Shown here one piece after another: positions 5,050-15,691 of a stretch of 20,000 nucleotides of DNA; within the stretch, counting starts at the first letter, position 1, and every line of letters begins with the position of its first letter. This stretch comes from an uncultured virus (IMG/VR IMGVR_UViG_3300001605_000037) (lineage: Duplodnaviria; Heunggongvirae; Uroviricota; Caudoviricetes): the IMG/VR virus record IMGVR_UViG_3300001605_000037, positions 44,915 through 64,914 of that record; one strand, given 5' to 3'. The position numbers and the translations under genes were made by a program. The notes beneath the pieces are model-generated. The model saw only the letters and a list, made by a program, of their open reading frames with translations, searched no databases and had not been told where the DNA came from.

Positions 5050-5346
5050 ATGTTGTTGGTGGTGAGTAATTATCAAGACATTCGTGAGCAAGAGATTCCC
5101 TGGGCGAAGTATTCCCAGGTATTGCTTGTTCATTGTGTCGAGGGTGGTGTGTTTGAGCTTAAGCGAAAGTTGAAGACACAAGCACTAATCCACCACATCC
5201 CACTACACATCATGTTTATCATCCCACCAGTTGAGATTGTTCCCCCCGAACTTCTTTTGGGTTGTGGACTAACCATATCCAAGGAGGTGGAACTATATGG
5301 ACAGCAAATTAATCATACCATACCTTCAGATGCCAAAGAGAGCTAA
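5050..5346 (+). CDS. Hypothetical protein
   Basis: Track ORF 5041..5346; ATG 5050 lies just outside the hairpin; start uncertain. Confidence 0.55.
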   Translation: MLLVVSNYQDIREQEIPWAKYSQVLLVHCVEGGVFELKRKLKTQALIHHIPLHIMFIIPPVEIVPPELLLGCGLTISKEVELYGQQINHTIPSDAKES

Positions 5347-5575
5347 GTCTCCTGATATTGTGGACTGCTTTATTAAAGCCGGAGCTCCGCGAGGTGTGGT
5401 GAAGGTTGAGAACACAGGACGAGATTTTGATAGTGTCTACTCGGCACTATTTATGTACCTGAAGAGCCATCCTGAGTTGGAGGTGACTCTTGTCAGAGAA
5501 GACGGAGACATCGTTCTATACAGACGTGTTGTCGGAGAAGATAGCACTATTTGTGATGCAGGACTGGACAGTTGA
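5297..5575 (+). CDS. Small alpha/beta hypothetical protein, possibly DNA-binding, 92 aa
   Basis: Strong AAGGAGGTGG RBS; helix (FDSVYSALFMYLKSH) followed by a beta-hairpin. Confidence 0.75.
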   Translation: MDSKLIIPYLQMPKRAKSPDIVDCFIKAGAPRGVVKVENTGRDFDSVYSALFMYLKSHPELEVTLVREDGDIVLYRRVVGEDSTICDAGLDS

Positions 5576-5759
5576 TGAGGCTCATACTATCTCGTCTGTT
5601 GCTGAAAGGTTTCAGATCGATATCAGAAGTGCAAGGTATTACCTTATGAAGTATGTGGATAAAGGAATCCTTTGTCAGATCACATGGGAGGGTAATACCT
5701 ATTATGCATGGAGGTGTTGGAAACGTCCATTCAAAGCTTTAGGGGTTAGAGTACTATGA
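5490..5759 (+). CDS. Winged helix-turn-helix protein, 89 aa
   Basis: TISSVAERFQIDIRSARYYLMKYVDKGIL plus wing; GGAGGTGA before TTG start. Confidence 0.75.
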   Translation: MSEKTETSFYTDVLSEKIALFVMQDWTVDEAHTISSVAERFQIDIRSARYYLMKYVDKGILCQITWEGNTYYAWRCWKRPFKALGVRVL

Positions 5760-5926
5760 GAAGCACATGGGTTGGTGCGTGTGCAGCACTATGCGTGATA
5801 TTCATGTACGTTGCATGGTACGGGTTCTCTGGTGGGACAATACCCCCAATTGTGGTGGGTATAACCGGTACAGTATTGACGACCATTACAGTGATGGGTA
5901 CTATAGCCATCATAAATATGAAGTGA
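5756..5926 (+). CDS. Small two-TM membrane protein, 56 aa (MRSTWVGAC...)
   Basis: Translated by hand; two hydrophobic stretches; ATGA overlap; fills the gap exactly. Confidence 0.62.
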   Translation: MRSTWVGACAALCVIFMYVAWYGFSGGTIPPIVVGITGTVLTTITVMGTIAIINMK

Positions 5927-5929
5927 CCT

Positions 5930-6955
5930 ATGTCATTTGTTGAAACACTTGTGAAGAATGATTGGACCACTGCGAACGCAGAGGCGAAAGTAAAGCAGCT
6001 GACTGAAGCAATCCAGAAGAAGTATCCTAGTGCAACACCTGAGTTTGTGGAGAATACTCTCAAGTCAGCTATTAATACCCTGACGAAGAGTAAGATCGAG
6101 GTTATTCAGGGTGTGTGTGTTGGGTTTGGGAAGAAGCAGGACAGTAACAGTTTTGCAAAGATGAAGGCCAAGGAGGTCTGGGATCAGAACCCCAAGCTGG
6201 CTGCAGATGAGAAGTATGTTGTTGTGGATGCCGATGGGTCTGTTGTGTTTGAGACTGACGATAAGGGCGTCCAGAAGGTTGACAAGAATGGATCACCTAT
6301 TCCTGTCTGGGCTGACAACAGGGAGTTCATTGACCCTGATACCAAGAAGATGAAGAACTCTCGGTGGGGCAAGGCTCTCGGAGAGGTTATTCAGCGTGAT
6401 GCCTTCTTTATTGTGAATGGTAAGTTTGCACGTGCCTTTGGGAATTTCGATGTCCAGATGGGACATGAATACCAGATATTTGGTACTACCAGTAAGAAGG
6501 GGTATATTACTATCCCGAAGAATAGTCCTGGAGTTAAGCATGTAAGGATGCTTGAGGATGCTGAGTATTGGACACTGGTCAACAAGGTTGCTCAGGTTGA
6601 TGATTTAGCTGTTCAGCTTGGTGATGTTGCTACTATGGATAAGAACAAGCCCGTGGTGACCAAGGGGACAGTAACTACAGCTAGGGAAGCTGGGGCTTTC
6701 TATATGATTGTGGTGACCGATGATTCATACCCCGATGGGTATATGTGCTTCTCGGCTGACGAGGCTCTGAATGTTGAGTGCGAGGCACTCGGAGCTGGTA
6801 ATGAGATCATTCTGGTTGGAAAGACTGGCCAGTCAGTTGATAAGGTGACCAAGGAAGTCCGGAAGAACATTTCGGTGTATGGGTTTGCTTGCAATCCCGA
6901 GAGTGATAAGATTGCAGGGGCTGTTAGGTCTCTGGATGACATCCTATACTCATAA
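5930..6955 (+). CDS. Putative OB-fold single-stranded DNA-binding protein (viral RPA/SSB-like), 341 aa
   Basis: Beta-rich repeats with OB-like patterns (VVTKGTV...IVVTDDS...GNEIILVGK...NISVYG); upstream of a Sak4-like ATPase. ORF certain, function inferred. Confidence 0.6.
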   Translation: MSFVETLVKNDWTTANAEAKVKQLTEAIQKKYPSATPEFVENTLKSAINTLTKSKIEVIQGVCVGFGKKQDSNSFAKMKAKEVWDQNPKLAADEKYVVVDADGSVVFETDDKGVQKVDKNGSPIPVWADNREFIDPDTKKMKNSRWGKALGEVIQRDAFFIVNGKFARAFGNFDVQMGHEYQIFGTTSKKGYITIPKNSPGVKHVRMLEDAEYWTLVNKVAQVDDLAVQLGDVATMDKNKPVVTKGTVTTAREAGAFYMIVVTDDSYPDGYMCFSADEALNVECEALGAGNEIILVGKTGQSVDKVTKEVRKNISVYGFACNPESDKIAGAVRSLDDILYS

Positions 6956-6964
6956 TTATTTTTT

Positions 6965-7047
6965 GGGTGTGTGGCAGAGTGGCCAAATGCGTCCCCCTCA
7001 AAAGGGGATCCTGTAGAGGTGCATCGGTTCGAATCCGATCATGCCCA
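6965..7047 (+). tRNA. trnL: tRNA-Leu, anticodon CAA, archaeal type, no intron, no encoded CCA
   Basis: Acceptor GGGTGTG/CATGCCC + A73; D-arm GCAGAGTGGCCAAATGC; anticodon stem TCCCC/GGGGA, loop CTCAAAA (CAA 6999-7001); variable arm CCT-GTAG-AGG; T-arm ATCGG-TTCGAAT-CCGAT. Confidence 0.95.
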
Positions 7048-7226
7048 TTGCCCGAGAGGGATCTAGAGAATAACAGAATATCTAGCCAGTAGCTTACATT
7101 GCGATACGCGGTATTCCTCCGCATAAATAAATGGATGGGAGTCTACCCAAGTGAGCAAGACATTACGAGAGAACCAGGACAGTTCGACTCTGTCTGGTTC
7201 TATAAGACTTCCGATGGAGGTCTTGC
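7048..7226 (+). ncRNA. Candidate structured RNA or leader with a tRNA-like acceptor-T minihelix
   Basis: About 190-nt gap in otherwise gapless DNA. Hairpins: CCC-GAGA-GGG; CTAGA..TCTAG; GCGG..CCGC; TGGG..CCCA; AGAACCA-G-GACAG-TTCGACT-CTGTC-TGGTTCT-A (7170-7202); AAGACTTCC-GAT-GGAGGTCTT (7204-7224). Confidence 0.45.
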
Positions 7227-7236
7227 AGGTGAGATT

Positions 7237-8193
7237 ATGGGATTAGCTGACAAGGTGAAAAGTGTAGAGGTGGGTAGAGTTCCGAGAAACATACGCGATG
7301 TTTTTCGCCCATCAACAGAGTTAGAACATGTTTCTGGCTTAAAGATTGCTGTGTATTCAAGAGCCAAGGTGGGCAAGACACACTTAGCATTTACTTGCCC
7401 ATTGCCTATTTATGGGATTGACACAGAAGGGTCTTGGGGGTTGAATAGGAAGCAATTCCCTGAAGAGATTCAGAAGCAAGTGCATGTTAGACAAGTGTTG
7501 TATGATGCAAGCAAGAAAGACAATCTGGTGGATTTGGTTGCTGCATTAAATGCTGCAAGGGATGCTCTGGATGTGCTTACTGATTATATCACTTGCAATG
7601 ATTTAGTAGAGACCTTTTTGAGTAGTGTTAAGCAGGCTACAATGGCAGAGTTGATAGCTGGATTAACCACTTCGGAGTATACACCCAACCAGGACTTGAT
7701 TGAGTATGTGCTGGAGGAGATGGTGTTCTATGAGAGCATAACTGCAGGTGAAGTGTACACTTATGTGAAACCGTTCCCGAAGGGTACTATTGTGATTGAT
7801 TCAGGTACTGATATATGGGACTGGCTGGGCATATGGAAGGATGAACAGAACTTTTCAGATCCTGGACGACTTCAGTGGGGGCACGCAAACAAACGGTACA
7901 ATCAGTTTATTATGATGATGTTGCATTCAAAGTGGAATGTGCTGGGTAGCTTTAAAGCCGAAGCTATGGTAGATTCCAAGGGTGCCGACATGGGTACAGA
8001 TAAACCCAAGTGGCAGAAGAAGACTGATTATTGGTTTGATGTGATCATTGAGATGAAGCGGATTGGGAATGATCGCCAGGTGGTGTTCAGAGGAGATAGG
8101 TTTGGGGGCAACATCGCAACATTAGTTAATCCCACTTGGGATGACATTGTGAAACAGCTCGAGAGTGTTAAAAAGATTACGGTACAGAAATGA
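7237..8193 (+). CDS. RecA-fold ATPase of AAA_24/Sak4-like ssDNA-annealing type, 318 aa
   Basis: Walker A YSRAKVGKT, IDTEGS, Walker B TIVIDS, C-terminal KPKWQKKTDYWFDVII; start moved to ATG 7237 after AGGTGA RBS. Confidence 0.75.
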   Translation: MGLADKVKSVEVGRVPRNIRDVFRPSTELEHVSGLKIAVYSRAKVGKTHLAFTCPLPIYGIDTEGSWGLNRKQFPEEIQKQVHVRQVLYDASKKDNLVDLVAALNAARDALDVLTDYITCNDLVETFLSSVKQATMAELIAGLTTSEYTPNQDLIEYVLEEMVFYESITAGEVYTYVKPFPKGTIVIDSGTDIWDWLGIWKDEQNFSDPGRLQWGHANKRYNQFIMMMLHSKWNVLGSFKAEAMVDSKGADMGTDKPKWQKKTDYWFDVIIEMKRIGNDRQVVFRGDRFGGNIATLVNPTWDDIVKQLESVKKITVQK

Positions 8194-8489
8194 GCCCACT
8201 TCGATCTTTCCTTGGTAACACTGATGAGATACGAGTGTTGGATCTCATAATACCCATTGGGTTTACACAGAGAGTATATGTGAGTGATATCGAGAGGGTT
8301 ACTAAGATTCCCCATGCTAAGCTGTGCAAGATACTTGATCGGTTAGTTGGACCTGATGGGGTTGATCTTTCGGACATGGCATACATTGAGTTAGCTAAGA
8401 ATAATAAAGCTCTTGCATTGCATAATGTGATCATTACATTGCATATCGAAGAGTTGATTGAAGCACAGAGGAAGGCACTGGAGGGGTAG
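8190..8489 (+). CDS. Winged helix-turn-helix protein, 99 aa
   Basis: LGNTDEIRVLDLI...VSDIERVTKIPHAKLCKILDRLV pattern typical of archaeal wHTH proteins. Confidence 0.65.
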   Translation: MSPLRSFLGNTDEIRVLDLIIPIGFTQRVYVSDIERVTKIPHAKLCKILDRLVGPDGVDLSDMAYIELAKNNKALALHNVIITLHIEELIEAQRKALEG

Positions 8490-8490
8490 T

Positions 8491-9135
8491 GTGACAGTAA
8501 TTGATCTTCAGGTATTGCAGGATGAGCTTGCTGAACTTGGCATGCAAGGAAACCCTGGTGTTGAGATGAGAGGGTTGATTGCTCTTAGTCAGTTTGGAGA
8601 CTTTGTGAGGTACACAACACATGATCAGGTACTTAACCCAACTGTTCGACCCCACGAGAATCCATCCCTTGAGGCTCATGCTGCAGGTCATGTACTTGTC
8701 CAGATGATGACCTACATCATTAAGAGGAATATAAATCTGGATGAGGCCCTAATGCTGGGGTTACAAGATCTTCGCGGACGAACTGTGATGAAGAAACCAT
8801 CACTGGCAGGTACAGTAGCTAGTCCTGGTGAATGCTCTGGTGTTGCATTAGTTGTACGTGATTGGGCAGGACTAACTTGTTTGAATAGAGAGATGTGTGC
8901 TGATAAGATCCTTATTACACCACATGCATCAGTTAAGATACCTGTGCATATTTTTAGGGGTGTTATTACTGATTATGGTGGTATTGGATGTCACGCTGCG
9001 ATTGTTTGTCGAGAGCACCACATACCCTGCATAGTTGATACTGGAGATGGAACATCACGGATTAGGACCGGAATGTACGTTAGTATTACTGCTGCGGGAG
9101 AGGTTCTTGGTCCTACAGGAGAGAAATTGTTATGA
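8491..9135 (+). CDS. Fusion of a degenerate MazG-like all-alpha domain and a PEP-utilising swivelling phosphohistidine domain, 214 aa
   Basis: C-half GTVASPG...GVITDYGGIGCHAAIVCREHHIPCIV with the phosphoacceptor His (strong). N-half has MazG-like helix spacing, SQFGDF...EAHAAGHVLVQ...NINLDEAL (weaker). GTG start after GGAGG. Confidence 0.78.
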   Translation: MTVIDLQVLQDELAELGMQGNPGVEMRGLIALSQFGDFVRYTTHDQVLNPTVRPHENPSLEAHAAGHVLVQMMTYIIKRNINLDEALMLGLQDLRGRTVMKKPSLAGTVASPGECSGVALVVRDWAGLTCLNREMCADKILITPHASVKIPVHIFRGVITDYGGIGCHAAIVCREHHIPCIVDTGDGTSRIRTGMYVSITAAGEVLGPTGEKLL

Positions 9136-9935
9136 TAAACTACATGCCTATAACACCCGTTGGGTTGCTTGGAACGTTAGATACCATGGAGGTTCGGAAT
9201 GCTTTCATGCTGACCCATCTGTGGGAGATTAAGAGGTATAGGGAGTTCTACCAGACACATCAGTTTGATACTGTGATTCTGGATAATGACCTGTATGAGA
9301 AGCCCACAGCTGCTAGCTTTGATCACATGTTGAAGATTGCTAGCCAGATTGATGCTGAGAGAATCTTTGTGGTTGGACCTGAGTGTTTGACTGATGGGGT
9401 TAAGACTGGACAGATGACTCTGGACTTGTTAACACAATATGAGTCTGAAGGGTATCTGACTGACAATGTACAGATGATGTGTATATTGCACGAGAGACCC
9501 AATGAGATGCTTAGGCAGTGGAATCTGATTAAGCATAAAGAGGATGTTGCAGTAGGGATTAGTATTTTTAGCTATAGGCTTGGGTATGATAGAGCAAGCT
9601 TACACAAGTTTCTCAACCTGCCTAGGAATAGGTACACACACGCGTTTGGGTGGGACAACCTGTTAGAGGTTTATAATATGAGGGGATGTTTTGACTCTGT
9701 TGATTCTTCCCTGGCTGTTAGTGCTGCCTATAATGGTGTGGATCTGATGAAGGCCTGGCAGATTACTAGGGATGAAAAGAAGGATGGACGGGTTATTAAG
9801 GACAGATTGGATCTGACTTGGGCTGGTAAACCATCAGTGTCTTTGGAGTTAGCTACCTGTAAGAATATTCATTTTCTCAGACAGTTCTGCAGATGTGAGG
9901 GTCCTATCTATAAACAATCGGAGTTACCTGTATGA
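9132..9935 (+). CDS. TGT/DpdA-like TIM-barrel transglycosylase (putative base-exchange enzyme), 267 aa
   Basis: VILDND-x-YE, VVGPE, THAFG and DSVDSS motifs in the order of the TGT-fold D-S, P-D, H-x-x-G and D-x-x-D-S motifs; recognised by eye. Confidence 0.58.
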   Translation: MINYMPITPVGLLGTLDTMEVRNAFMLTHLWEIKRYREFYQTHQFDTVILDNDLYEKPTAASFDHMLKIASQIDAERIFVVGPECLTDGVKTGQMTLDLLTQYESEGYLTDNVQMMCILHERPNEMLRQWNLIKHKEDVAVGISIFSYRLGYDRASLHKFLNLPRNRYTHAFGWDNLLEVYNMRGCFDSVDSSLAVSAAYNGVDLMKAWQITRDEKKDGRVIKDRLDLTWAGKPSVSLELATCKNIHFLRQFCRCEGPIYKQSELPV

Positions 9936-10351
9936 CAGATCGGTTAGCTAGTGTGGTTGATTTGGCAACGTTTGGGACAGGAACTATGACTGTGCTTGAG
10001 CTGCAGATAGATTCTTGTAGGATTGCACAGGATCATGGGTTCTGGAACACATATGATGATATACAGTCTGCTTTAGATGCAGCATGTGATGGGATGTGTT
10101 GTGGACCAGATGCTAACTTGCTGAATGTGATTATTGATAGTAAGCTTATGCTTGCTGTTGGGGAGCTTTCGGAGGCTGAGGATGCCTTGAGGCATAACAA
10201 GCCCACCCCTGAGTTTGCTGAAGAACTTGCCGATGCGATCATTAGGATTGCTGATCTGGCTCATAAGTTGGGTATTAACCTCGAGGCTGCTATTAGAGCG
10301 AAGCAAGCATATAATGAGCAGAGACCGCATATGCATGGCAAGACCTTTTAG
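9932..10351 (+). CDS. mazG: MazG-like nucleoside triphosphate pyrophosphohydrolase, 139 aa
   Basis: KLMLAVGELSEA...EELADAIIRIADL...KQAYNEQRPHMHGK: canonical ExxE...ExxD signature of viral single-domain MazG. Confidence 0.9.
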   Translation: MTDRLASVVDLATFGTGTMTVLELQIDSCRIAQDHGFWNTYDDIQSALDAACDGMCCGPDANLLNVIIDSKLMLAVGELSEAEDALRHNKPTPEFAEELADAIIRIADLAHKLGINLEAAIRAKQAYNEQRPHMHGKTF

Positions 10352-10758: not shown

Positions 10759-10882
10759 ATGTAGGACTTGTGTGTATAATATACAGACAGGTGTGTGTAT
10801 TTATACCGGCCATCAGCTGAATTGGTTGAGAAATTTGGGGATTTGGTTGTTGGGGTGTGTATGTTATAAGGAGAGAACATGA
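10748..10882 (+). CDS. Small Cys-rich protein, 44 aa (MKARCRTC...)
   Basis: Track ORF trimmed to ATG 10748; ATGA overlap with polB. Confidence 0.6.
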   Translation: MKARCRTCVYNIQTGVCIYTGHQLNWLRNLGIWLLGCVCYKERT

Positions 10883-13188
10883 CGAATTATGTGTGGAGTG
10901 GATCGTTGTGGACCATGAAAGCTGGGAAACCCATCACGATCCTCTTTGGACGGAATGCAGATAATCCGACAGAAACTAAGGCCATTGGGTTCGGAAATCA
11001 ACGACCCTACTTTTATGCTCCAGCAGATGAAGTGCTTGCATTGAAGGTTAAGAAGTGCCTGTATGAAATTGTAGAGATTGAGGAAGGATTTGTAGATGCT
11101 TTTGGAAGGTCTGTGACAAGGTGTTATACTACGTTGCCATCTGATGTACCGAAAGTACGAGGCTTGTTTAGCTTTACTTGTGAGGCAGATATTGTTTATG
11201 ATATGAGGTATCTGATTGATCATAAGATCTATTATGGGTTTAATGAGAAGGGAGAGCCAGTAGATATTCCGATGGTGTCTCCGAGGGTCTGTGAGTTTGA
11301 TATTGAAGTTAATGCTCCACAGGACATCATGCCTCGGGCTGAGGAGCCTATCTGGCCTATCAATCAGATTCAGGTGATGGATTCCTATACGGAGCAAGTG
11401 AGAGTGTTCACCTTCAATTATGGAGATGACATTGTTGATGTGGACCAGATTAACTTTAAGACTGAAGAAGAGGTGATTCGAGCATTTGCTCAGTGGGTAT
11501 GGGATACTGATCCAGACTTGCTTGCTGGGTGGAATATTAAAGGGTTTGATGTGCCATACATTATTGCTCGGGCCGCTAGGTTGAGAGTTGACATATCGAG
11601 GTTGTCTAGGTGGCCACAGGTGTATCCAACGGATGCCAAGATTGTTGGAAGAGAGATATTTGATTCGTTCGTGTTCTATAAGGATTGGAGTAAGCCTAAG
11701 GGACAGCTTCCGAGTTATACATTAAAGTATGTGGTGCAGCATGAAACTGGATGGAGTTATATTAACCAGGGTGATAAGATTCGAAGCCTGGTGGACAGCA
11801 AGGATTGGAAAACGTTGGTTGATTACGGCAAGAATGATGTCCTGGCTCTTAGAAAGATTCATAAGGAAACTGGACTGATTGAGTTTTATGAAGCCTTAAG
11901 ACGAATGACCGGAATCAAACTCACCGATTGCTTGCTTAGGAGTAAGATCATTGAACTCTATCTGATGCATGAGATTGCTAGGATTGGGGAGGTGATGCCT
12001 CTACCCACCAAGAAGCATGATGCTCAGAAGGCTGAGTATGAGGGGGCCCTTGTCTTACCTCCTGAGTTTGGAGTGCATGAGGATGTGGGGACGACAGATC
12101 TGACAGCACTGTACCCGACTATTATTATTGCGTTTGATTTGAGTCCTGATAGGTTGAAGATGATCCCAAGGGTTATTGTTCAGCTTATGGAGGCTAGAGA
12201 TGTTATGAGGAGGCTCAAGTTGGAAGGAAAGGCTTCTAAGGCCATGCTGACTTCCGAACAGAGCTTGAAGTATGTGATTAATGCTTTTTATGGGTACTTG
12301 GCATTTAGTGGGGCACGATTGCACAAACCTGAATTGGCTGCATTTATCACCTTAAAAGGGAGAGAGATTAGTCATGAGCTTCATAAGAAGATTGTTGAGA
12401 TGGGTTACACGATTGTATATGGGGATACGGACTCTACATTTGTCAAGCCAGTTAAGACCGTCGAGGAAGGTAAAGCGATCGAGGCAGCGCTCAATTCTTA
12501 TCTGGCGGATTGGGCAGCAGAACTTAAGATTACTCCACACTTGGCGCCGACCCTTAAGTTGGAAAAGATATACCGGACACTCATGTTTAAAAAGAAATCG
12601 GGTGGTACGGAAGCTGCGAAGAAGAGATATGCTGGTGTTGTGGTCTGGAAAGACGGTAAGGATCTAACGGGTAAGCCTCCCGAGGTTGACTATACTGGCT
12701 TGGAGGTTAAGAGATCAGATACAGCCAATGTGTCTAGGGAGTTGATGAAACAGTTTTTTGAGATGGTGTTGATTCAGAAGAACCCACACCAGGCTGCAAG
12801 GTTGGTCAAAGATATATACTGGAAAGTTTATAATGGATCTATGTCTTTACAAGATGTAGCTATTCCGAAAGGGATTAGTAAGGGGAGGAGTCATATGGAA
12901 CCTGGTTCTTCCCCTTGGATACGGGGGAAGGAGAATGGACGAGTACTTTTGGGCATACATTTCAGATCGGATAAAAAGCCTAAGTTGCTGTATTGCGTTG
13001 GTCATCCAGATACCATTTGTATTGATGATGATATTGATGACTTGCGTGTACTATCTGTGTGTAAGATTGACTGGAAAACAATGGCGTTGAAGACTGTTGA
13101 GATGAAGATGAAGAGTCTGATTGAGTCTGTTGGATTGTCTTGGGAGACAGAAGTGCTTGGACAGCAAGGGTTGGATAAGTGGTTTTGA
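10879..13188 (+). CDS. polB: Family B DNA polymerase with 3'-5' exonuclease and C-terminal PIP box, 769 aa
   Basis: ExoI FDIE, ExoII GWNIKGFDVPY, ExoIII YGKND; motif A DLTALYPTII, B KYVINAFYG, C YGDTDS; KKRY; C-terminal QQGLDKWF. Confidence 0.97.
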   Translation: MTNYVWSGSLWTMKAGKPITILFGRNADNPTETKAIGFGNQRPYFYAPADEVLALKVKKCLYEIVEIEEGFVDAFGRSVTRCYTTLPSDVPKVRGLFSFTCEADIVYDMRYLIDHKIYYGFNEKGEPVDIPMVSPRVCEFDIEVNAPQDIMPRAEEPIWPINQIQVMDSYTEQVRVFTFNYGDDIVDVDQINFKTEEEVIRAFAQWVWDTDPDLLAGWNIKGFDVPYIIARAARLRVDISRLSRWPQVYPTDAKIVGREIFDSFVFYKDWSKPKGQLPSYTLKYVVQHETGWSYINQGDKIRSLVDSKDWKTLVDYGKNDVLALRKIHKETGLIEFYEALRRMTGIKLTDCLLRSKIIELYLMHEIARIGEVMPLPTKKHDAQKAEYEGALVLPPEFGVHEDVGTTDLTALYPTIIIAFDLSPDRLKMIPRVIVQLMEARDVMRRLKLEGKASKAMLTSEQSLKYVINAFYGYLAFSGARLHKPELAAFITLKGREISHELHKKIVEMGYTIVYGDTDSTFVKPVKTVEEGKAIEAALNSYLADWAAELKITPHLAPTLKLEKIYRTLMFKKKSGGTEAAKKRYAGVVVWKDGKDLTGKPPEVDYTGLEVKRSDTANVSRELMKQFFEMVLIQKNPHQAARLVKDIYWKVYNGSMSLQDVAIPKGISKGRSHMEPGSSPWIRGKENGRVLLGIHFRSDKKPKLLYCVGHPDTICIDDDIDDLRVLSVCKIDWKTMALKTVEMKMKSLIESVGLSWETEVLGQQGLDKWF

Positions 13189-13868: not shown

Positions 13869-14305
13869 ATGTTAATGCTGAATTGAAAGAACGGATGATG
13901 CAGGTTGGTACACTGGTTGATACTGTTGAGATTGATAAGGAGTTCTGGGACCTCAACCAACCCTACTGGCAGAATACCAACAATCATACCTTACTGATGT
14001 TGCGCAATACCTACCATAGGGTTGAGACAGATGAGGAGATTCACAAGGTTCTTGGACCACTTGTTGATAAGATGGCTTGGGTGTTTGTTAGCTATCCTGA
14101 GTTGAGAGCTAGGATTTCATGGCTAACATGGTTCTTTCAACTCTATGCGTTTGATAAGCAGTTTGCGAAGGAGAAGTATACCCATGAAGTGTGGACTGAT
14201 CCTCGGAAGTGGGGATTAGCTACAGATACTGTTAACCCCCTAGAGGTTGTAGTGGAGGTGAATGATGACAGTGCTAGTGGATTGGCAACTCAAGGAACGC
14301 ATTGA
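13865..14305 (+). CDS. Hypothetical helical Trp-rich protein, 146 aa
   Basis: GGAGG then ATG 13865 (ATGA overlap). Confidence 0.8.
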   Translation: MNVNAELKERMMQVGTLVDTVEIDKEFWDLNQPYWQNTNNHTLLMLRNTYHRVETDEEIHKVLGPLVDKMAWVFVSYPELRARISWLTWFFQLYAFDKQFAKEKYTHEVWTDPRKWGLATDTVNPLEVVVEVNDDSASGLATQGTH

Positions 14306-14834
14306 TGCTGGTGTGATTGGAGTATGTCCGTTGAGTAAGAGTGCCATTCAGGCTAACAGTATAGATGTTAGGTTGAATAATACATTTGCTGCTTACGATG
14401 CTCAGTATGCCAGTGTTGAGATTGATCCATATGATGAGGATAGTACACGGTTAGGACTGGCTGCCATGACTGCCGATAGTATATTGCTGACTAAGGGAGC
14501 ATTCTTGTTAGCTGAGACTATGGAGACCATAAGGCTGCCCGACAATGTATGTGCAACCATAGAGGGTAAGAGTAGTCTTGCACGGCTTGGTATTACTGTC
14601 CATCAGACCGGTGGGTGGATTGATTGTGGGTTTGAAGGGACCATAACACTTGAGATGACCAATGAGAATGTTAGACCTGTTGTACTGTATGCTGGAATGC
14701 CTATAGCACAGATTGTGTTTTATGAGACAGATCATGCTTTGATGCCATATGGGGTTAGGGGATCTGCTAAGTATCATAAACAGAAGGGTGCTACTGGATC
14801 TAGGTTTTACAAGAACGATAGGTGTGTTATATGA
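14262..14834 (+). CDS. dcd: dCTP deaminase
   Basis: QANSIDVRL, EGKSSLARLG, GGWIDCGFEGTITLE, KYHKQKG; GGAGGTGA RBS. Confidence 0.95.
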   Translation: MMTVLVDWQLKERIDAGVIGVCPLSKSAIQANSIDVRLNNTFAAYDAQYASVEIDPYDEDSTRLGLAAMTADSILLTKGAFLLAETMETIRLPDNVCATIEGKSSLARLGITVHQTGGWIDCGFEGTITLEMTNENVRPVVLYAGMPIAQIVFYETDHALMPYGVRGSAKYHKQKGATGSRFYKNDRCVI

Positions 14835-14968: not shown

Positions 14969-15691
14969 ATGATACCGATTAAGGCGTATAGTATTGGGGA
15001 TGCTCATTGTCAGGTTGTAACGAAGCTTCTTAAGGATGGGAAGGTACAACTAACACAGGATGGTGAATTGACAGTTGAGCATCTGGATATGGTGATTGAG
15101 ATTAAGAATCCTCTCTCGGAGCCAATGGTACATCCTGGGAGTAACTTTCAAGCTGGAAAGCTAAGAGAGTATGTTGATGGACTGCTGAATGGGACAAGTG
15201 GAACCTTTACATATACATACCATGAGAGGTTGTTTGGATGGAGTCCCTGGGAAGATGGGTATGATGCGATTAATCAAATTGATGGTATTGTTAGGTACCT
15301 TGCTGATGAGACAAATAGAGATAGCCGCCGTGCTGTTGCTATTACTTGGTATCCTTGGAAGGATCTTGGATATTCTGGACCATGCTTGCAATATGTGCAG
15401 TTTATTGTTCGTGATGGACAGCTGTTCATGACAGTTCTGTTCCGGAGTAACGATGGCTTATCAGCAGCTGGAGCGAATATGTTTGCCTTGGTGGCATTGC
15501 AGGCTGCGGTTGCTGCTAAGTTGTACTTGAAGGTTGGAGGATACTGTCATCACTCAGTAAGTATGCATGCATATGTGATCAGAGATCAGAAAGAGGTTGA
15601 GGATATGTTGATGAAGCAGTTTGGTTGGACACGTGACACAACTCGAGCTGGCTTGGTGCGTGACAGACCTGATATTCCTTGGAAGGTGTGA
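14969..15691 (+). CDS. thyA: Thymidylate synthase, archaeal ThyA type (or related dUMP hydroxymethylase)
   Basis: FTYTYHERL, SRRAVAITW, catalytic PCLQ, FRSND, ANM, SMHAY. Confidence 0.9.
   Translation: MIPIKAYSIGDAHCQVVTKLLKDGKVQLTQDGELTVEHLDMVIEIKNPLSEPMVHPGSNFQAGKLREYVDGLLNGTSGTFTYTYHERLFGWSPWEDGYDAINQIDGIVRYLADETNRDSRRAVAITWYPWKDLGYSGPCLQYVQFIVRDGQLFMTVLFRSNDGLSAAGANMFALVALQAAVAAKLYLKVGGYCHHSVSMHAYVIRDQKEVEDMLMKQFGWTRDTTRAGLVRDRPDIPWKV

Follow-up and report, generated by a model that had tools for sequence, protein, structure and literature searches.

A MazG-type fold joined to a stand-alone phosphohistidine swivel domain in an uncultured tailed virus and in a mostly cellular protein family

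A 20,000-nucleotide stretch of DNA from an uncultured tailed virus of the Caudoviricetes (IMG/VR record IMGVR_UViG_3300001605_000037, positions 44,915 to 64,914; called the window below) carries at 8491-9135, on the plus strand, a gene whose 214-aa product, P0001, joins an N-terminal MazG-type domain to a C-terminal phosphohistidine swivel domain. We are close to certain of this two-domain architecture. The combination is real and conserved and, as far as literature searches show, apparently undescribed; no published description of a MazG-type and swivel fusion was found in these searches, which included parts of PMC8421398 and PMC8989533. We read P0001, as a serious yet still tentative proposal, as a His168-dependent (pyro)phosphoryl transferase whose substrate would be a nucleotide bound in the degenerate MazG domain. 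The virus record is complete at 64,914 bp, with direct terminal repeats.

The swivel domain is recognised by several routes. PF00391 is the sole Pfam family on P0001 (E 1.6e-12; score 47.3 bits, cut-off 23.1), and in a phmmer search of PDB sequences residues 105-201 align to phosphoenolpyruvate (PEP) synthase 8a8e (E 1.4e-9), with His168 falling on the histidine of the 'TSH' motif of that enzyme ('ggrtsHaaiv'). The motif in P0001 reads GGIGCHAAIVCRE, His168 lying within GGIGCH, and Cys stands in place of the Thr/Ser of TSH; in an alignment of 41 two-domain family members, from which all conservation counts below are taken, position 167 is Cys in 29 and Ser in 10. NCBIfam gave only sub-threshold, domain-level matches on the swivel, to PEP synthase, pyruvate phosphate dikinase (PPDK), PigC/RedH, rifamycin phosphotransferase and PRK08296 proteins. 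The AlphaFold2 (AF2) model of P0001, made with the 41-sequence alignment, has a mean predicted local distance difference test score (pLDDT) of 94. In a VIA-align (VIA) search of 48,161 PDB representatives, independent of Foldseek, the best structural match to residues ~103-211 was rifampin phosphotransferase (RPH) 5hv1 (Z 16.4, root-mean-square deviation (rmsd) 2.0, 109 aligned), with further matches to the C-terminal domain of Bacillus pyruvate kinase 2e28 (Z 15.8), Enzyme I 2wqd (Z 15.3), PPDK 1vbg (Z 13.0) and 2fm4 (Z 11.1). Foldseek found the swivel fold at E 2e-8 to 1e-6.

His168 is the predicted phospho-acceptor of a complete swivel domain. A preliminary description of the gene, made from the sequence alone, had reported an intact GG-x-x-CHAAIV-x-RE phosphocarrier lacking both the ATP-grasp and the PEP-binding barrel of its relatives, and both points hold: the motif is present as written, with Pfam, the PDB alignment and VIA in agreement, and PF00391 stands alone on the protein. 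Neither the ATP-grasp family PPDK_N (PF01326) nor the PEP/pyruvate barrel family PEP-utilizers_C (PF02896) is present on P0001, and a search of the entire virus for each at E<=1 gave 0 matches. The phospho-acceptor histidine, whose conservation among homologues the same description had made decisive, is kept in 40 of the 41 aligned members, with its GG..(C/S)H setting.

Residues 1-100 of the AF2 model form four helices (6-16, 24-43, 58-78 and 83-95). The 14 best-ranked VIA matches confined to residues ~1-103 are all all-alpha NTP pyrophosphatases, at Z 9.8 to 7.0. First among them is the MazG protein of S. solfataricus, 1vmg (Z 9.8, rmsd 2.2, 81 of 83 residues aligned), and the mouse protein 2a3q (Z 9.3; also in the Foldseek list) and YpjD 2gta (Z 8.9) come close behind. 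HisIE 6j22, AF1178 4qgp, HisE 1yvw and 3c90, integron MazG 2q5z and RS21-C6 2oie were likewise matched, as were the M. tuberculosis and E. coli MazG proteins, cyanophage S-2L MazG 7ody, the dimeric dUTPase 5myd and the MazG-related T. maritima protein 2yxh. VIA Z values under ~13 may be non-specific for helical bundles, and it is the consistency of the list, not the score, that carries the argument.

The model and these matches indicate that residues 1-100 have a MazG-type all-alpha NTP-pyrophosphatase fold with altered ligands, as the preliminary description had supposed when it named this fold as a point on which its account would stand or fall. It had further noted that the acidic metal ligands appeared replaced, SQFGD (residues 33-37) standing for ExxE and HAAGH (63-67) for ExxD. 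A weak hhalign alignment to 16 canonical MazG-like proteins, collected from the window's own MazG gene (9932-10351), puts Q34/D37 on ExxE, A64/H67 on ExxD and the 'RNINLDEA' helix of P0001 on MazG 'LGINLEAA'. In that weak register the positions had been rightly placed, but the replacement of the ligands is partial, and E34, D37 and E61 are retained in many cellular members. Position 34 is Gln in 25 members and Glu in 11, position 37 is Asp in 22, and position 67 is His in 22, Gln in 15 and Asp in 1.

Other residues of this domain are kept far more strictly. Arg27 and Gly66 are invariant (41/41); His44, Asp45 and Pro50 each occur in 40/41, Arg53 in 39/41, Asn49 in 36/41 and Glu61 in 35/41. A family-specific loop between helices 2 and 3 reads T43-H44-D45...N49-P50...R53. 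By their conservation, the invariant polar residues argue for a binding or active site, not a mere scaffold.

The fusion, which the preliminary description had called unusual, is not unique: P0001 belongs to a conserved, mostly cellular family. HMMER searches over 1.84 billion representatives returned 4,984 proteins at E<=0.001, most sharing the swivel domain only; among the best 150 of these, some 50 match over both domains and are 207-250 aa long. In the ESM Atlas the query belongs to a cluster of 93 proteins, 78% archaeal and commonest in Nanobdellota. Full-length relatives in species-representative genomes come from Woesearchaeota (2), Nanoarchaeota and metagenome-assembled genomes (MAGs) labelled 'Methanosarcinales' and 'Gammaproteobacteria', and a metagenome scan with the N-terminal domain found 24 loci. 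Cellular contexts of the family include topoisomerase, ribosomal proteins, NusG and gyrase. The family is mostly cellular, in DPANN archaea and bacteria resembling the candidate phyla radiation (CPR).

In a quick maximum-likelihood tree P0001, P0003, P0005 (the protein of a related virus, contig L002) and P0011 fall in a 14-row 'H67' branch (Shimodaira-Hasegawa-like approximate likelihood ratio test 91). Every locus whose cellular context is known belongs to the rest of the tree, which is mostly 'Q67'. Some members are longer, at ~300 aa. Their N-terminal extensions match no Pfam family, and some are, by eye, a second copy of the N-terminal domain, so that P0016, P0043 and P0078 have two such domains in tandem before the swivel. 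MazG proteins form dimers, and a tandem-domain form is found in E. coli MazG; by analogy, the tandem copies suggest that the domain works as a dimer, as in MazG proteins. One protein, P0079, has a weak N-terminal match to Nuc_deoxyri_tr2 (nucleoside 2-deoxyribosyltransferase-like; E 0.039). Swivel domains also occur in series in giant proteins, both from the representative library (P0004 and P0013, 1,832-1,836 aa) and as open frames of 1,995 and 4,201 aa in DPANN-type genomes (G001:C37, G004:C45). These giants hold 3-5 swivels each, in some cases together with PPDK_N or phosphate acetyltransferase (PTA_PTB) domains.

Viral copies are even scarcer than cellular ones. A protein-pattern scan of IMG/VR found one full-length relative, on contig L002, with the gene at the same position. 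A degenerate-motif scan returned 4 stretches, 2 of which are chance matches in an unrelated open reading frame (ORF); the only true members were L002 and copies of the window's own virus, that is, 2 viral contigs. GenBank phages contained no family member by tblastn at E<=1e-5, and relaxing the limit to E<=1 brought up nothing but the swivel portions of PPDK-like or kinase genes; scans for further viral copies with P0011, P0009 and P0014 also found none. The top match in BFVD, A0A1J0MCY3, is an unnamed viral protein of 202 aa (182 columns, E 8.5e-7, 19% identity), which perhaps shares, at a distance, this arrangement of both domains.

The proposed mechanism starts from a PEP-synthase-type swivel carrying His168, which a linker of ~10 residues connects to the MazG-type four-helix bundle, the putative nucleotide-binding domain. 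The N-terminal domain appears to have lost part of the hydrolytic metal-ligand set and gained the invariant Arg27 and the T-H-D...N-P...R loop. Probably as a dimer, it would hold a (deoxy)nucleotide, and His168 would swap a phosphoryl or pyrophosphoryl group with the phosphate chain of that nucleotide, in place of attack by water, making the protein a ping-pong nucleotide (pyro)phosphotransferase. His168 might be charged by an NTP bound at that site or, in trans, by an ATP-grasp/PEP-synthase-type component of the host. In the virus, the gene would then be an accessory of the DNA-precursor and DNA-modification module, supplying or re-routing deoxynucleoside triphosphates (dNTPs) during replication. 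While the two folds, the conserved motifs, the family and its gene contexts are observed, nucleotide binding, phosphorylation of His168, the direction of transfer and the substrates are inferred. We regard phosphotransfer as the most economical reading because the phospho-acceptor histidine is kept, a polar cluster is conserved on an NTP-pyrophosphatase fold, the ExxD aspartate is lost and dNTP genes are among the neighbours.

The neighbours speak to this in both settings. The viral gene lies in a co-directional, overlapping run with a canonical MazG gene, and the window further holds a family B DNA polymerase (PolB), a dCTP deaminase and a thymidylate synthase (ThyA); a ribonucleotide reductase is encoded elsewhere in the virus. 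For the cellular side, 28 loci were analysed (L005-L009 and L088-L110; L111, a 36-residue partial match, was left out), with near-duplicates among them (L088 resembles L005, and L094 duplicates L008) and many only 1-4 kb long. They contain 83 neighbour ORFs, of which 62 + 13 were scanned and 8 short fragments left out. Nucleotide-metabolism genes lie within three genes of the family member in 9 of the 28 loci, a raw count taken without a background rate. Thymidine kinase is directly upstream in L093 (Pfam E 7.9e-43), L096 and L108, all in the same BLAST cluster, and L108 has a deoxynucleoside kinase (dNK) as well. L100 has thymidylate (TMP) kinase and an HD/HD_assoc protein. L104 combines cytidylate-kinase-like genes with an HD protein, L107 shares the CMP-kinase-like cluster of L104, and L106 has dCTP deaminase, serine hydroxymethyltransferase (SHMT), FolD and DeoC. 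L110 has ThyX, L089 a NUDIX gene and L103 a weak ThyX row (E 0.0067).

A protein of ~280 aa adjoins the homologue in 18/28 loci; in 15 of these the two genes diverge, and in the other 3 it follows the homologue on a shared strand. It matches no Pfam family above threshold (e.g. L005:4916-5770), with weak PLDc_2/iHKD rows, and ESM Atlas points to TrmB-type regulators, with a winged helix and a phospholipase D (PLD)-like sensor domain. It is probably a regulator of the cellular homologues, which we offer as a lead. Two other identities were considered for this neighbour and set aside, a relative of tRNA-guanine transglycosylase (TGT) and the missing catalytic partner: hhalign to the DpdA-like alignment described below gave a probability of 0.1%, a PDB profile search was empty and ESM Atlas favours the TrmB type. 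No dedicated ATP-grasp partner gene lies beside the gene in the virus or beside its homologues in the 28 cellular loci. The 5 carrier genomes hold 2-9 PPDK_N matches each, and in 2 of the 5 these include PPDK_N frames whose lengths, 308 and 327 aa, would suit stand-alone components.

The preliminary description had suggested a nucleotide (pyro)phosphorylase or kinase charged in trans by host PEP synthase. A nucleotide-directed phosphotransfer enzyme fits the cellular neighbourhoods (thymidine kinase, dNK, TMP kinase, CMP-kinase-like genes, dCTP deaminase, ThyX), but a number of observations weigh against it. VIA Z values of 7-10 are within the range that may reflect a common helical arrangement, residues 1-105 match no Pfam family when the limit is relaxed to E<=10, and the hhalign match to the canonical MazG-like proteins is weak (probability 3.2%, E 0.014, 83 columns, in the expected register). 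The ligands are degenerate (Q34, A64 and H67 in P0001), and binding of a metal-nucleotide complex may have been lost. The count of 9/28 loci with nucleotide genes has no background rate for comparison, and these neighbourhoods belong to the cellular Q67 branch, which is distant from the viral protein (25-34% identity over the N-terminal domain, 29-38% over full-length BLAST matches). Nucleoside diphosphate kinase (NDK, PF00334) is above cut-off in 5/5 carrier genomes and TMP kinase adjoins the family member in L100, and therefore there is no obvious universal gap for the family to fill; on these same observations, replacement of NDK was rejected and replacement of TMP kinase considered unlikely. 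The family is sporadic, occurring in 4/201 genomes sampled in one carrier's phylum, and the virus has no ATP-grasp of its own. Finally, the protein is 43% identical between the two viruses (8491-9135 against L002:5001-5630), with flanking genes at 53-79%; the viral gene diverges faster than its neighbours.

A bolder form of the phosphotransfer reading, which we think improbable, gives the MazG-like site the role of the ATP-grasp. His168 would attack the beta-phosphate of an NTP or dNTP, yielding NMP and pyrophospho-histidine, and the (pyro)phosphoryl group would then pass to a second nucleotide at that site, as in dUTP + dTMP -> dUMP + dTTP or a one-step NMP -> NTP. PPDK forms pyrophospho-histidine, and the dimeric dUTPases of the MazG superfamily attack at the beta-phosphate. 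If true, this would be an energy-conserving, 'pyrophosphate-saving' dUTPase or NMP pyrophosphokinase, used by energy-poor DPANN and CPR cells and borrowed by the virus to drive dNTP supply. Phosphotransfer in general, if confirmed, would amount to a new module combination in which an NTP-pyrophosphatase fold is re-used as substrate or donor site instead of an ATP-grasp, to an unrecognised step of deoxynucleotide metabolism in genome-reduced archaea and bacteria, and to a new type of virus-borne auxiliary nucleotide enzyme. At ~215 aa, soluble and predicted with high confidence, the protein can be tested at the bench.

The gene downstream opens a different possibility. Its product, of 267 aa, has an AF2 model with a pLDDT of 93.4, for which Foldseek returned only TGT entries (E from 3e-7) and VIA gave Cap10 (Z 15.8), archaeosine TGT (15.3), bacterial TGT (15.2), DpdA 7ui4 (14.4) and QTRT2 (13.3), above generic triosephosphate isomerase (TIM) barrels (Z <=13.1). 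It matches no Pfam family at E<=10, including DUF6610/PF20314, no NCBIfam and no PHROG family; its 23 homologues at E<=1 match no Pfam family except for chance rows, and GenBank phages gave no tblastn match. According to PMC10516641, DpdA marks 7-deazaguanine DNA modification as its signature protein; DpdA3 and DpdA4 are remote relatives of TGT, of which DpdA4 matches DUF6610, and phages that stop at 7-carboxy-7-deazaguanine (CDG) are without QueC. In its modelled structure the 267-aa protein looks like a further, unclassified DpdA-like lineage. QueD, QueE and FolE2 are encoded elsewhere in the virus and QueC has 0 matches in it at E<=1. The clade is one of uncultivated viruses, possibly inserting a CDG-derived base. 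The window points to a clade of probably archaeal tailed viruses that would make a 7-deazaguanine precursor without QueC and with a very small DpdA-like transglycosylase, which bears on how CDG-derived DNA bases arise and get inserted.

P0001 could then be a component of a 7-deazaguanine DNA-modification system and the partner of the adjacent DpdA-like transglycosylase, either phosphorylating the carboxylate of CDG in replacement of QueC chemistry or energising base exchange; taking both versions together, we consider this unlikely. The stop codon of the gene overlaps the start of the DpdA-like gene (ATGA, 9132-9135), the same adjacency recurs in L002, the only other viral contig carrying the family, and the virus has QueD, QueE and FolE2 without QueC. 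The copies with known viral context (P0001, P0005) share the H67 branch, apart from the cellular loci, and the longest contigs of P0011, the DpdA-like P0164 and the MazG-like P0188 are all 74,747 bp, which suggests, from lengths only, a third co-occurrence. Set against this are the related viruses G207 (100% complete), G209 (95%) and G208 (76%), which have a DpdA-like gene and QueD without QueC and without the family studied here; this weakens P0001 both as a substitute for QueC and as an obligate partner of DpdA. Five other viral loci (L114-L118) keep the order Sak4-like ... DpdA-like ... PolB with other small genes in the slot between the first two, and no TGT-like gene is near the 28 cellular loci. 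Because related viruses keep the DpdA-like gene without it, the gene is an accessory in a variable slot and not an obligate DpdA partner. A complex prediction for the DpdA-like protein with P0001 scored 0.00 against a mark of 0.32 and weighs neither way.

Elsewhere the slot holds DUF3310 (L115, L117) or unassigned ORFs of 65-136 aa (L114, L116). In L118 it is filled by an unassigned ORF of 219 aa (L118:2629-3288) that overlaps the DpdA-like start, and in L114 a Ro60/TROVE protein with a von Willebrand factor A (vWA) domain (L114:2999-4522; Pfam E 2.1e-30) lies directly upstream of the Sak4-like gene.

Rather doubtful, in our judgement, is a regulator, sensor or interfering protein, with the degenerate MazG domain as the binding site for a nucleotide (or an alarmone or signal) and the swivel as a part that would capture or imitate the phosphohistidine traffic of the host, as a decoy or for counter-defence. 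The patchy distribution (4/201 genomes), the rarity of viral capture (2 true IMG/VR contigs in the motif scan), divergence faster than that of the neighbours, the lost acidic ligands and the variable accessory slot would all suit such a role, and the swivel fold is also known in domains without catalysis, among them the one at the C-terminus of Bacillus pyruvate kinase (2e28, Z 15.8). Conservation tells the other way, with His168 and GG..(C/S)H kept in 40/41 and an invariant N-terminal polar set typical of a catalytic or binding site. The cellular neighbours, moreover, are housekeeping dNTP genes and the TrmB-like regulator, with no known defence genes (PADLOC was not searched). The more specific proposal of the preliminary description, a decoy draining host phosphoryl flux, found no support in any test run.

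Least probable of all, we think, is that P0001 has remained a hydrolase, a (d)NTP pyrophosphatase of the MazG/dUTPase kind in which the swivel does no more than tune activity or oligomerisation. The MazG-type fold, the E34 (11/41), D37 (22/41) and E61 (35/41) often kept by cellular members and the presence of dCTP deaminase and thymidylate synthase, in whose company one expects a dUTPase, would fit it. Against it, the position aligned to the ExxD aspartate is His in 22, Gln in 15 and Asp in 1 of 41, P0001 itself has Q34, A64 and H67, the virus already has a canonical MazG-like enzyme two genes on, and the strict conservation of His168 would be left unexplained.

The gene is contained in ORF 8458..9135 (+) of the six-frame listing, within which GTG 8491 is the likely start. 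The stop of the upstream ORF (TAG, 8487-8489) and a GGAGGGG precede it, and it corresponds to the residue at which the homologue in the related virus L002 begins (MIDLKSLQ...). The run from the Sak4-like gene through the 99-aa ORF, the gene itself and the DpdA-like gene to the MazG-like gene is co-directional and almost free of spacers (Table 1). Three of its four junctions are ATGA overlaps (8190-8193, 9132-9135 and 9932-9935), and a one-base gap separates the 99-aa ORF from the gene. The preliminary description had placed a canonical MazG two genes away, and it is indeed the second gene downstream; E78, E81, E98 and D101 are invariant in the 16-sequence alignment, and its score against PF12643 is 18.8 bits, under the cut-off of 27. 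The thymidylate synthase (14969-15691) passes TIGR03283, which hints at an archaeal host. Besides the ribonucleotide reductase, tail proteins are encoded outside the window.

Table 1. Features of the gene and its surroundings, in window coordinates unless a contig is named.
Feature	Position	Strand	Basis
Shine-Dalgarno-like GGAGGGG before the GTG start	8480..8486	+	read from sequence
Coding sequence of the 214-aa two-domain protein P0001, GTG start	8491..9135	+	ORF and L002 start
Predicted degenerate MazG-like four-helix domain, residues 1-100	8491..8790	+	AF2, VIA, hhalign register, column counts
T43-H44-D45 codons, most conserved motif of the N-terminal domain	8617..8625	+	H44, D45 each 40/41
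PEP-utilizer swivel (phosphohistidine) domain, residues 105-211	8803..9123	+	Pfam, PDB phmmer, VIA
Cys167-His168 codons (His168 codon 8992-8994); His168 the predicted phospho-acceptor	8989..8994	+	alignment to PEP synthase 'rtsHaaiv'; H168 40/41, C167 29/41
AAA_24 / Sak4-like ATPase, upstream end of the packed run	7099..8193	+	Pfam E 2.1e-8; PHROG 124
99-aa ORF, function unassigned, between the Sak4-like gene and the gene for P0001	8190..8489	+	absent in related virus L002
267-aa predicted TGT-superfamily TIM barrel, DpdA-like	9132..9935	+	AF2, Foldseek, VIA
Canonical MazG-like NTP pyrophosphatase, overlapping start	9932..10351	+	PHROG pyrophosphatase E 1.1e-17; ExxE/ExxD invariant
Family B DNA polymerase	10879..13188	+	profile scan
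dCTP deaminase-like gene (dNTP metabolism context)	14262..14834	+	Pfam DCD E 1.5e-41
Thymidylate synthase, methanogen type	14969..15691	+	NCBIfam TIGR03283, 177.5 bits against cut-off 174.55
QueD/QueE/FolE2 without QueC, with small TGT-fold protein	9132-9935; G000 5214-7043 (locus L085)

Among known systems, a virus-encoded swivel is shared with the phage 'kinase / pyruvate phosphate dikinase' proteins of PHROG 18609, which match residues 99-185 (E 1.8e-6). Those proteins are ~685 aa long, however, with the swivel at profile positions 382-467, and the weak tblastn matches to phage PPDK and kinase genes cover residues 91-202 only, not the N-terminal domain. PHROG 18609 is carried by ~80-100-kb siphophages of Vibrio, Stenotrophomonas and Rhizobium (e.g. 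vB_VpaS_sm030, DLP_5); its genes are annotated 'pyruvate phosphate dikinase' or 'kinase', annotations that appear to leave their role in phage biology unexplained.

With PEP synthase, PPDK and Enzyme I of the phosphotransferase system (PTS), P0001 shares a complete mobile domain of the swivel fold (Z 13-15.3) with the phospho-acceptor histidine in GG..xH, the PEP synthases being closest in sequence. Unlike them, P0001 and its virus have neither an ATP-grasp nor a PEP/pyruvate TIM barrel, Cys replaces the Ser/Thr before the histidine in 29/41 family members, and there is one short linker in place of two. The N-terminal domain has the four-helix fold of MazG, DCTPP1 (RS21-C6), HisE and the dimeric dUTPases, the best matches being 1vmg, 2a3q, 2gta, 1yvw, 2q5z and 7ody, and the family helix 'RN/GI(D/N)L..A' aligns with MazG 'LGI(D/N)L..A'. 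It differs from MazG in its ligands, (Q/E)xx(D/S/A) ... (A/D)xx(H/Q) instead of ExxE...ExxD, in the invariant Arg27 and the THD..NP..R loop, in the fused phosphocarrier and in matching no Pfam MazG model.

A parallel in layout is offered by HpeHI and RPH. HpeH is described, in part of PMC12167813, as having a substrate-binding domain and the swivel histidine in one protein, with the ATP-grasp separate, and as transferring phosphate between substrates on its own (PMC12167813). The gene for P0001 and its homologues in the 28 cellular loci have no adjoining ATP-grasp gene, and the putative substrate module is a MazG-type four-helix bundle instead of a domain of the rifampin-binding type. P0001 likewise joins another domain to a swivel, and RPH 5hv1 is its best structural match over the swivel (Z 16.4).

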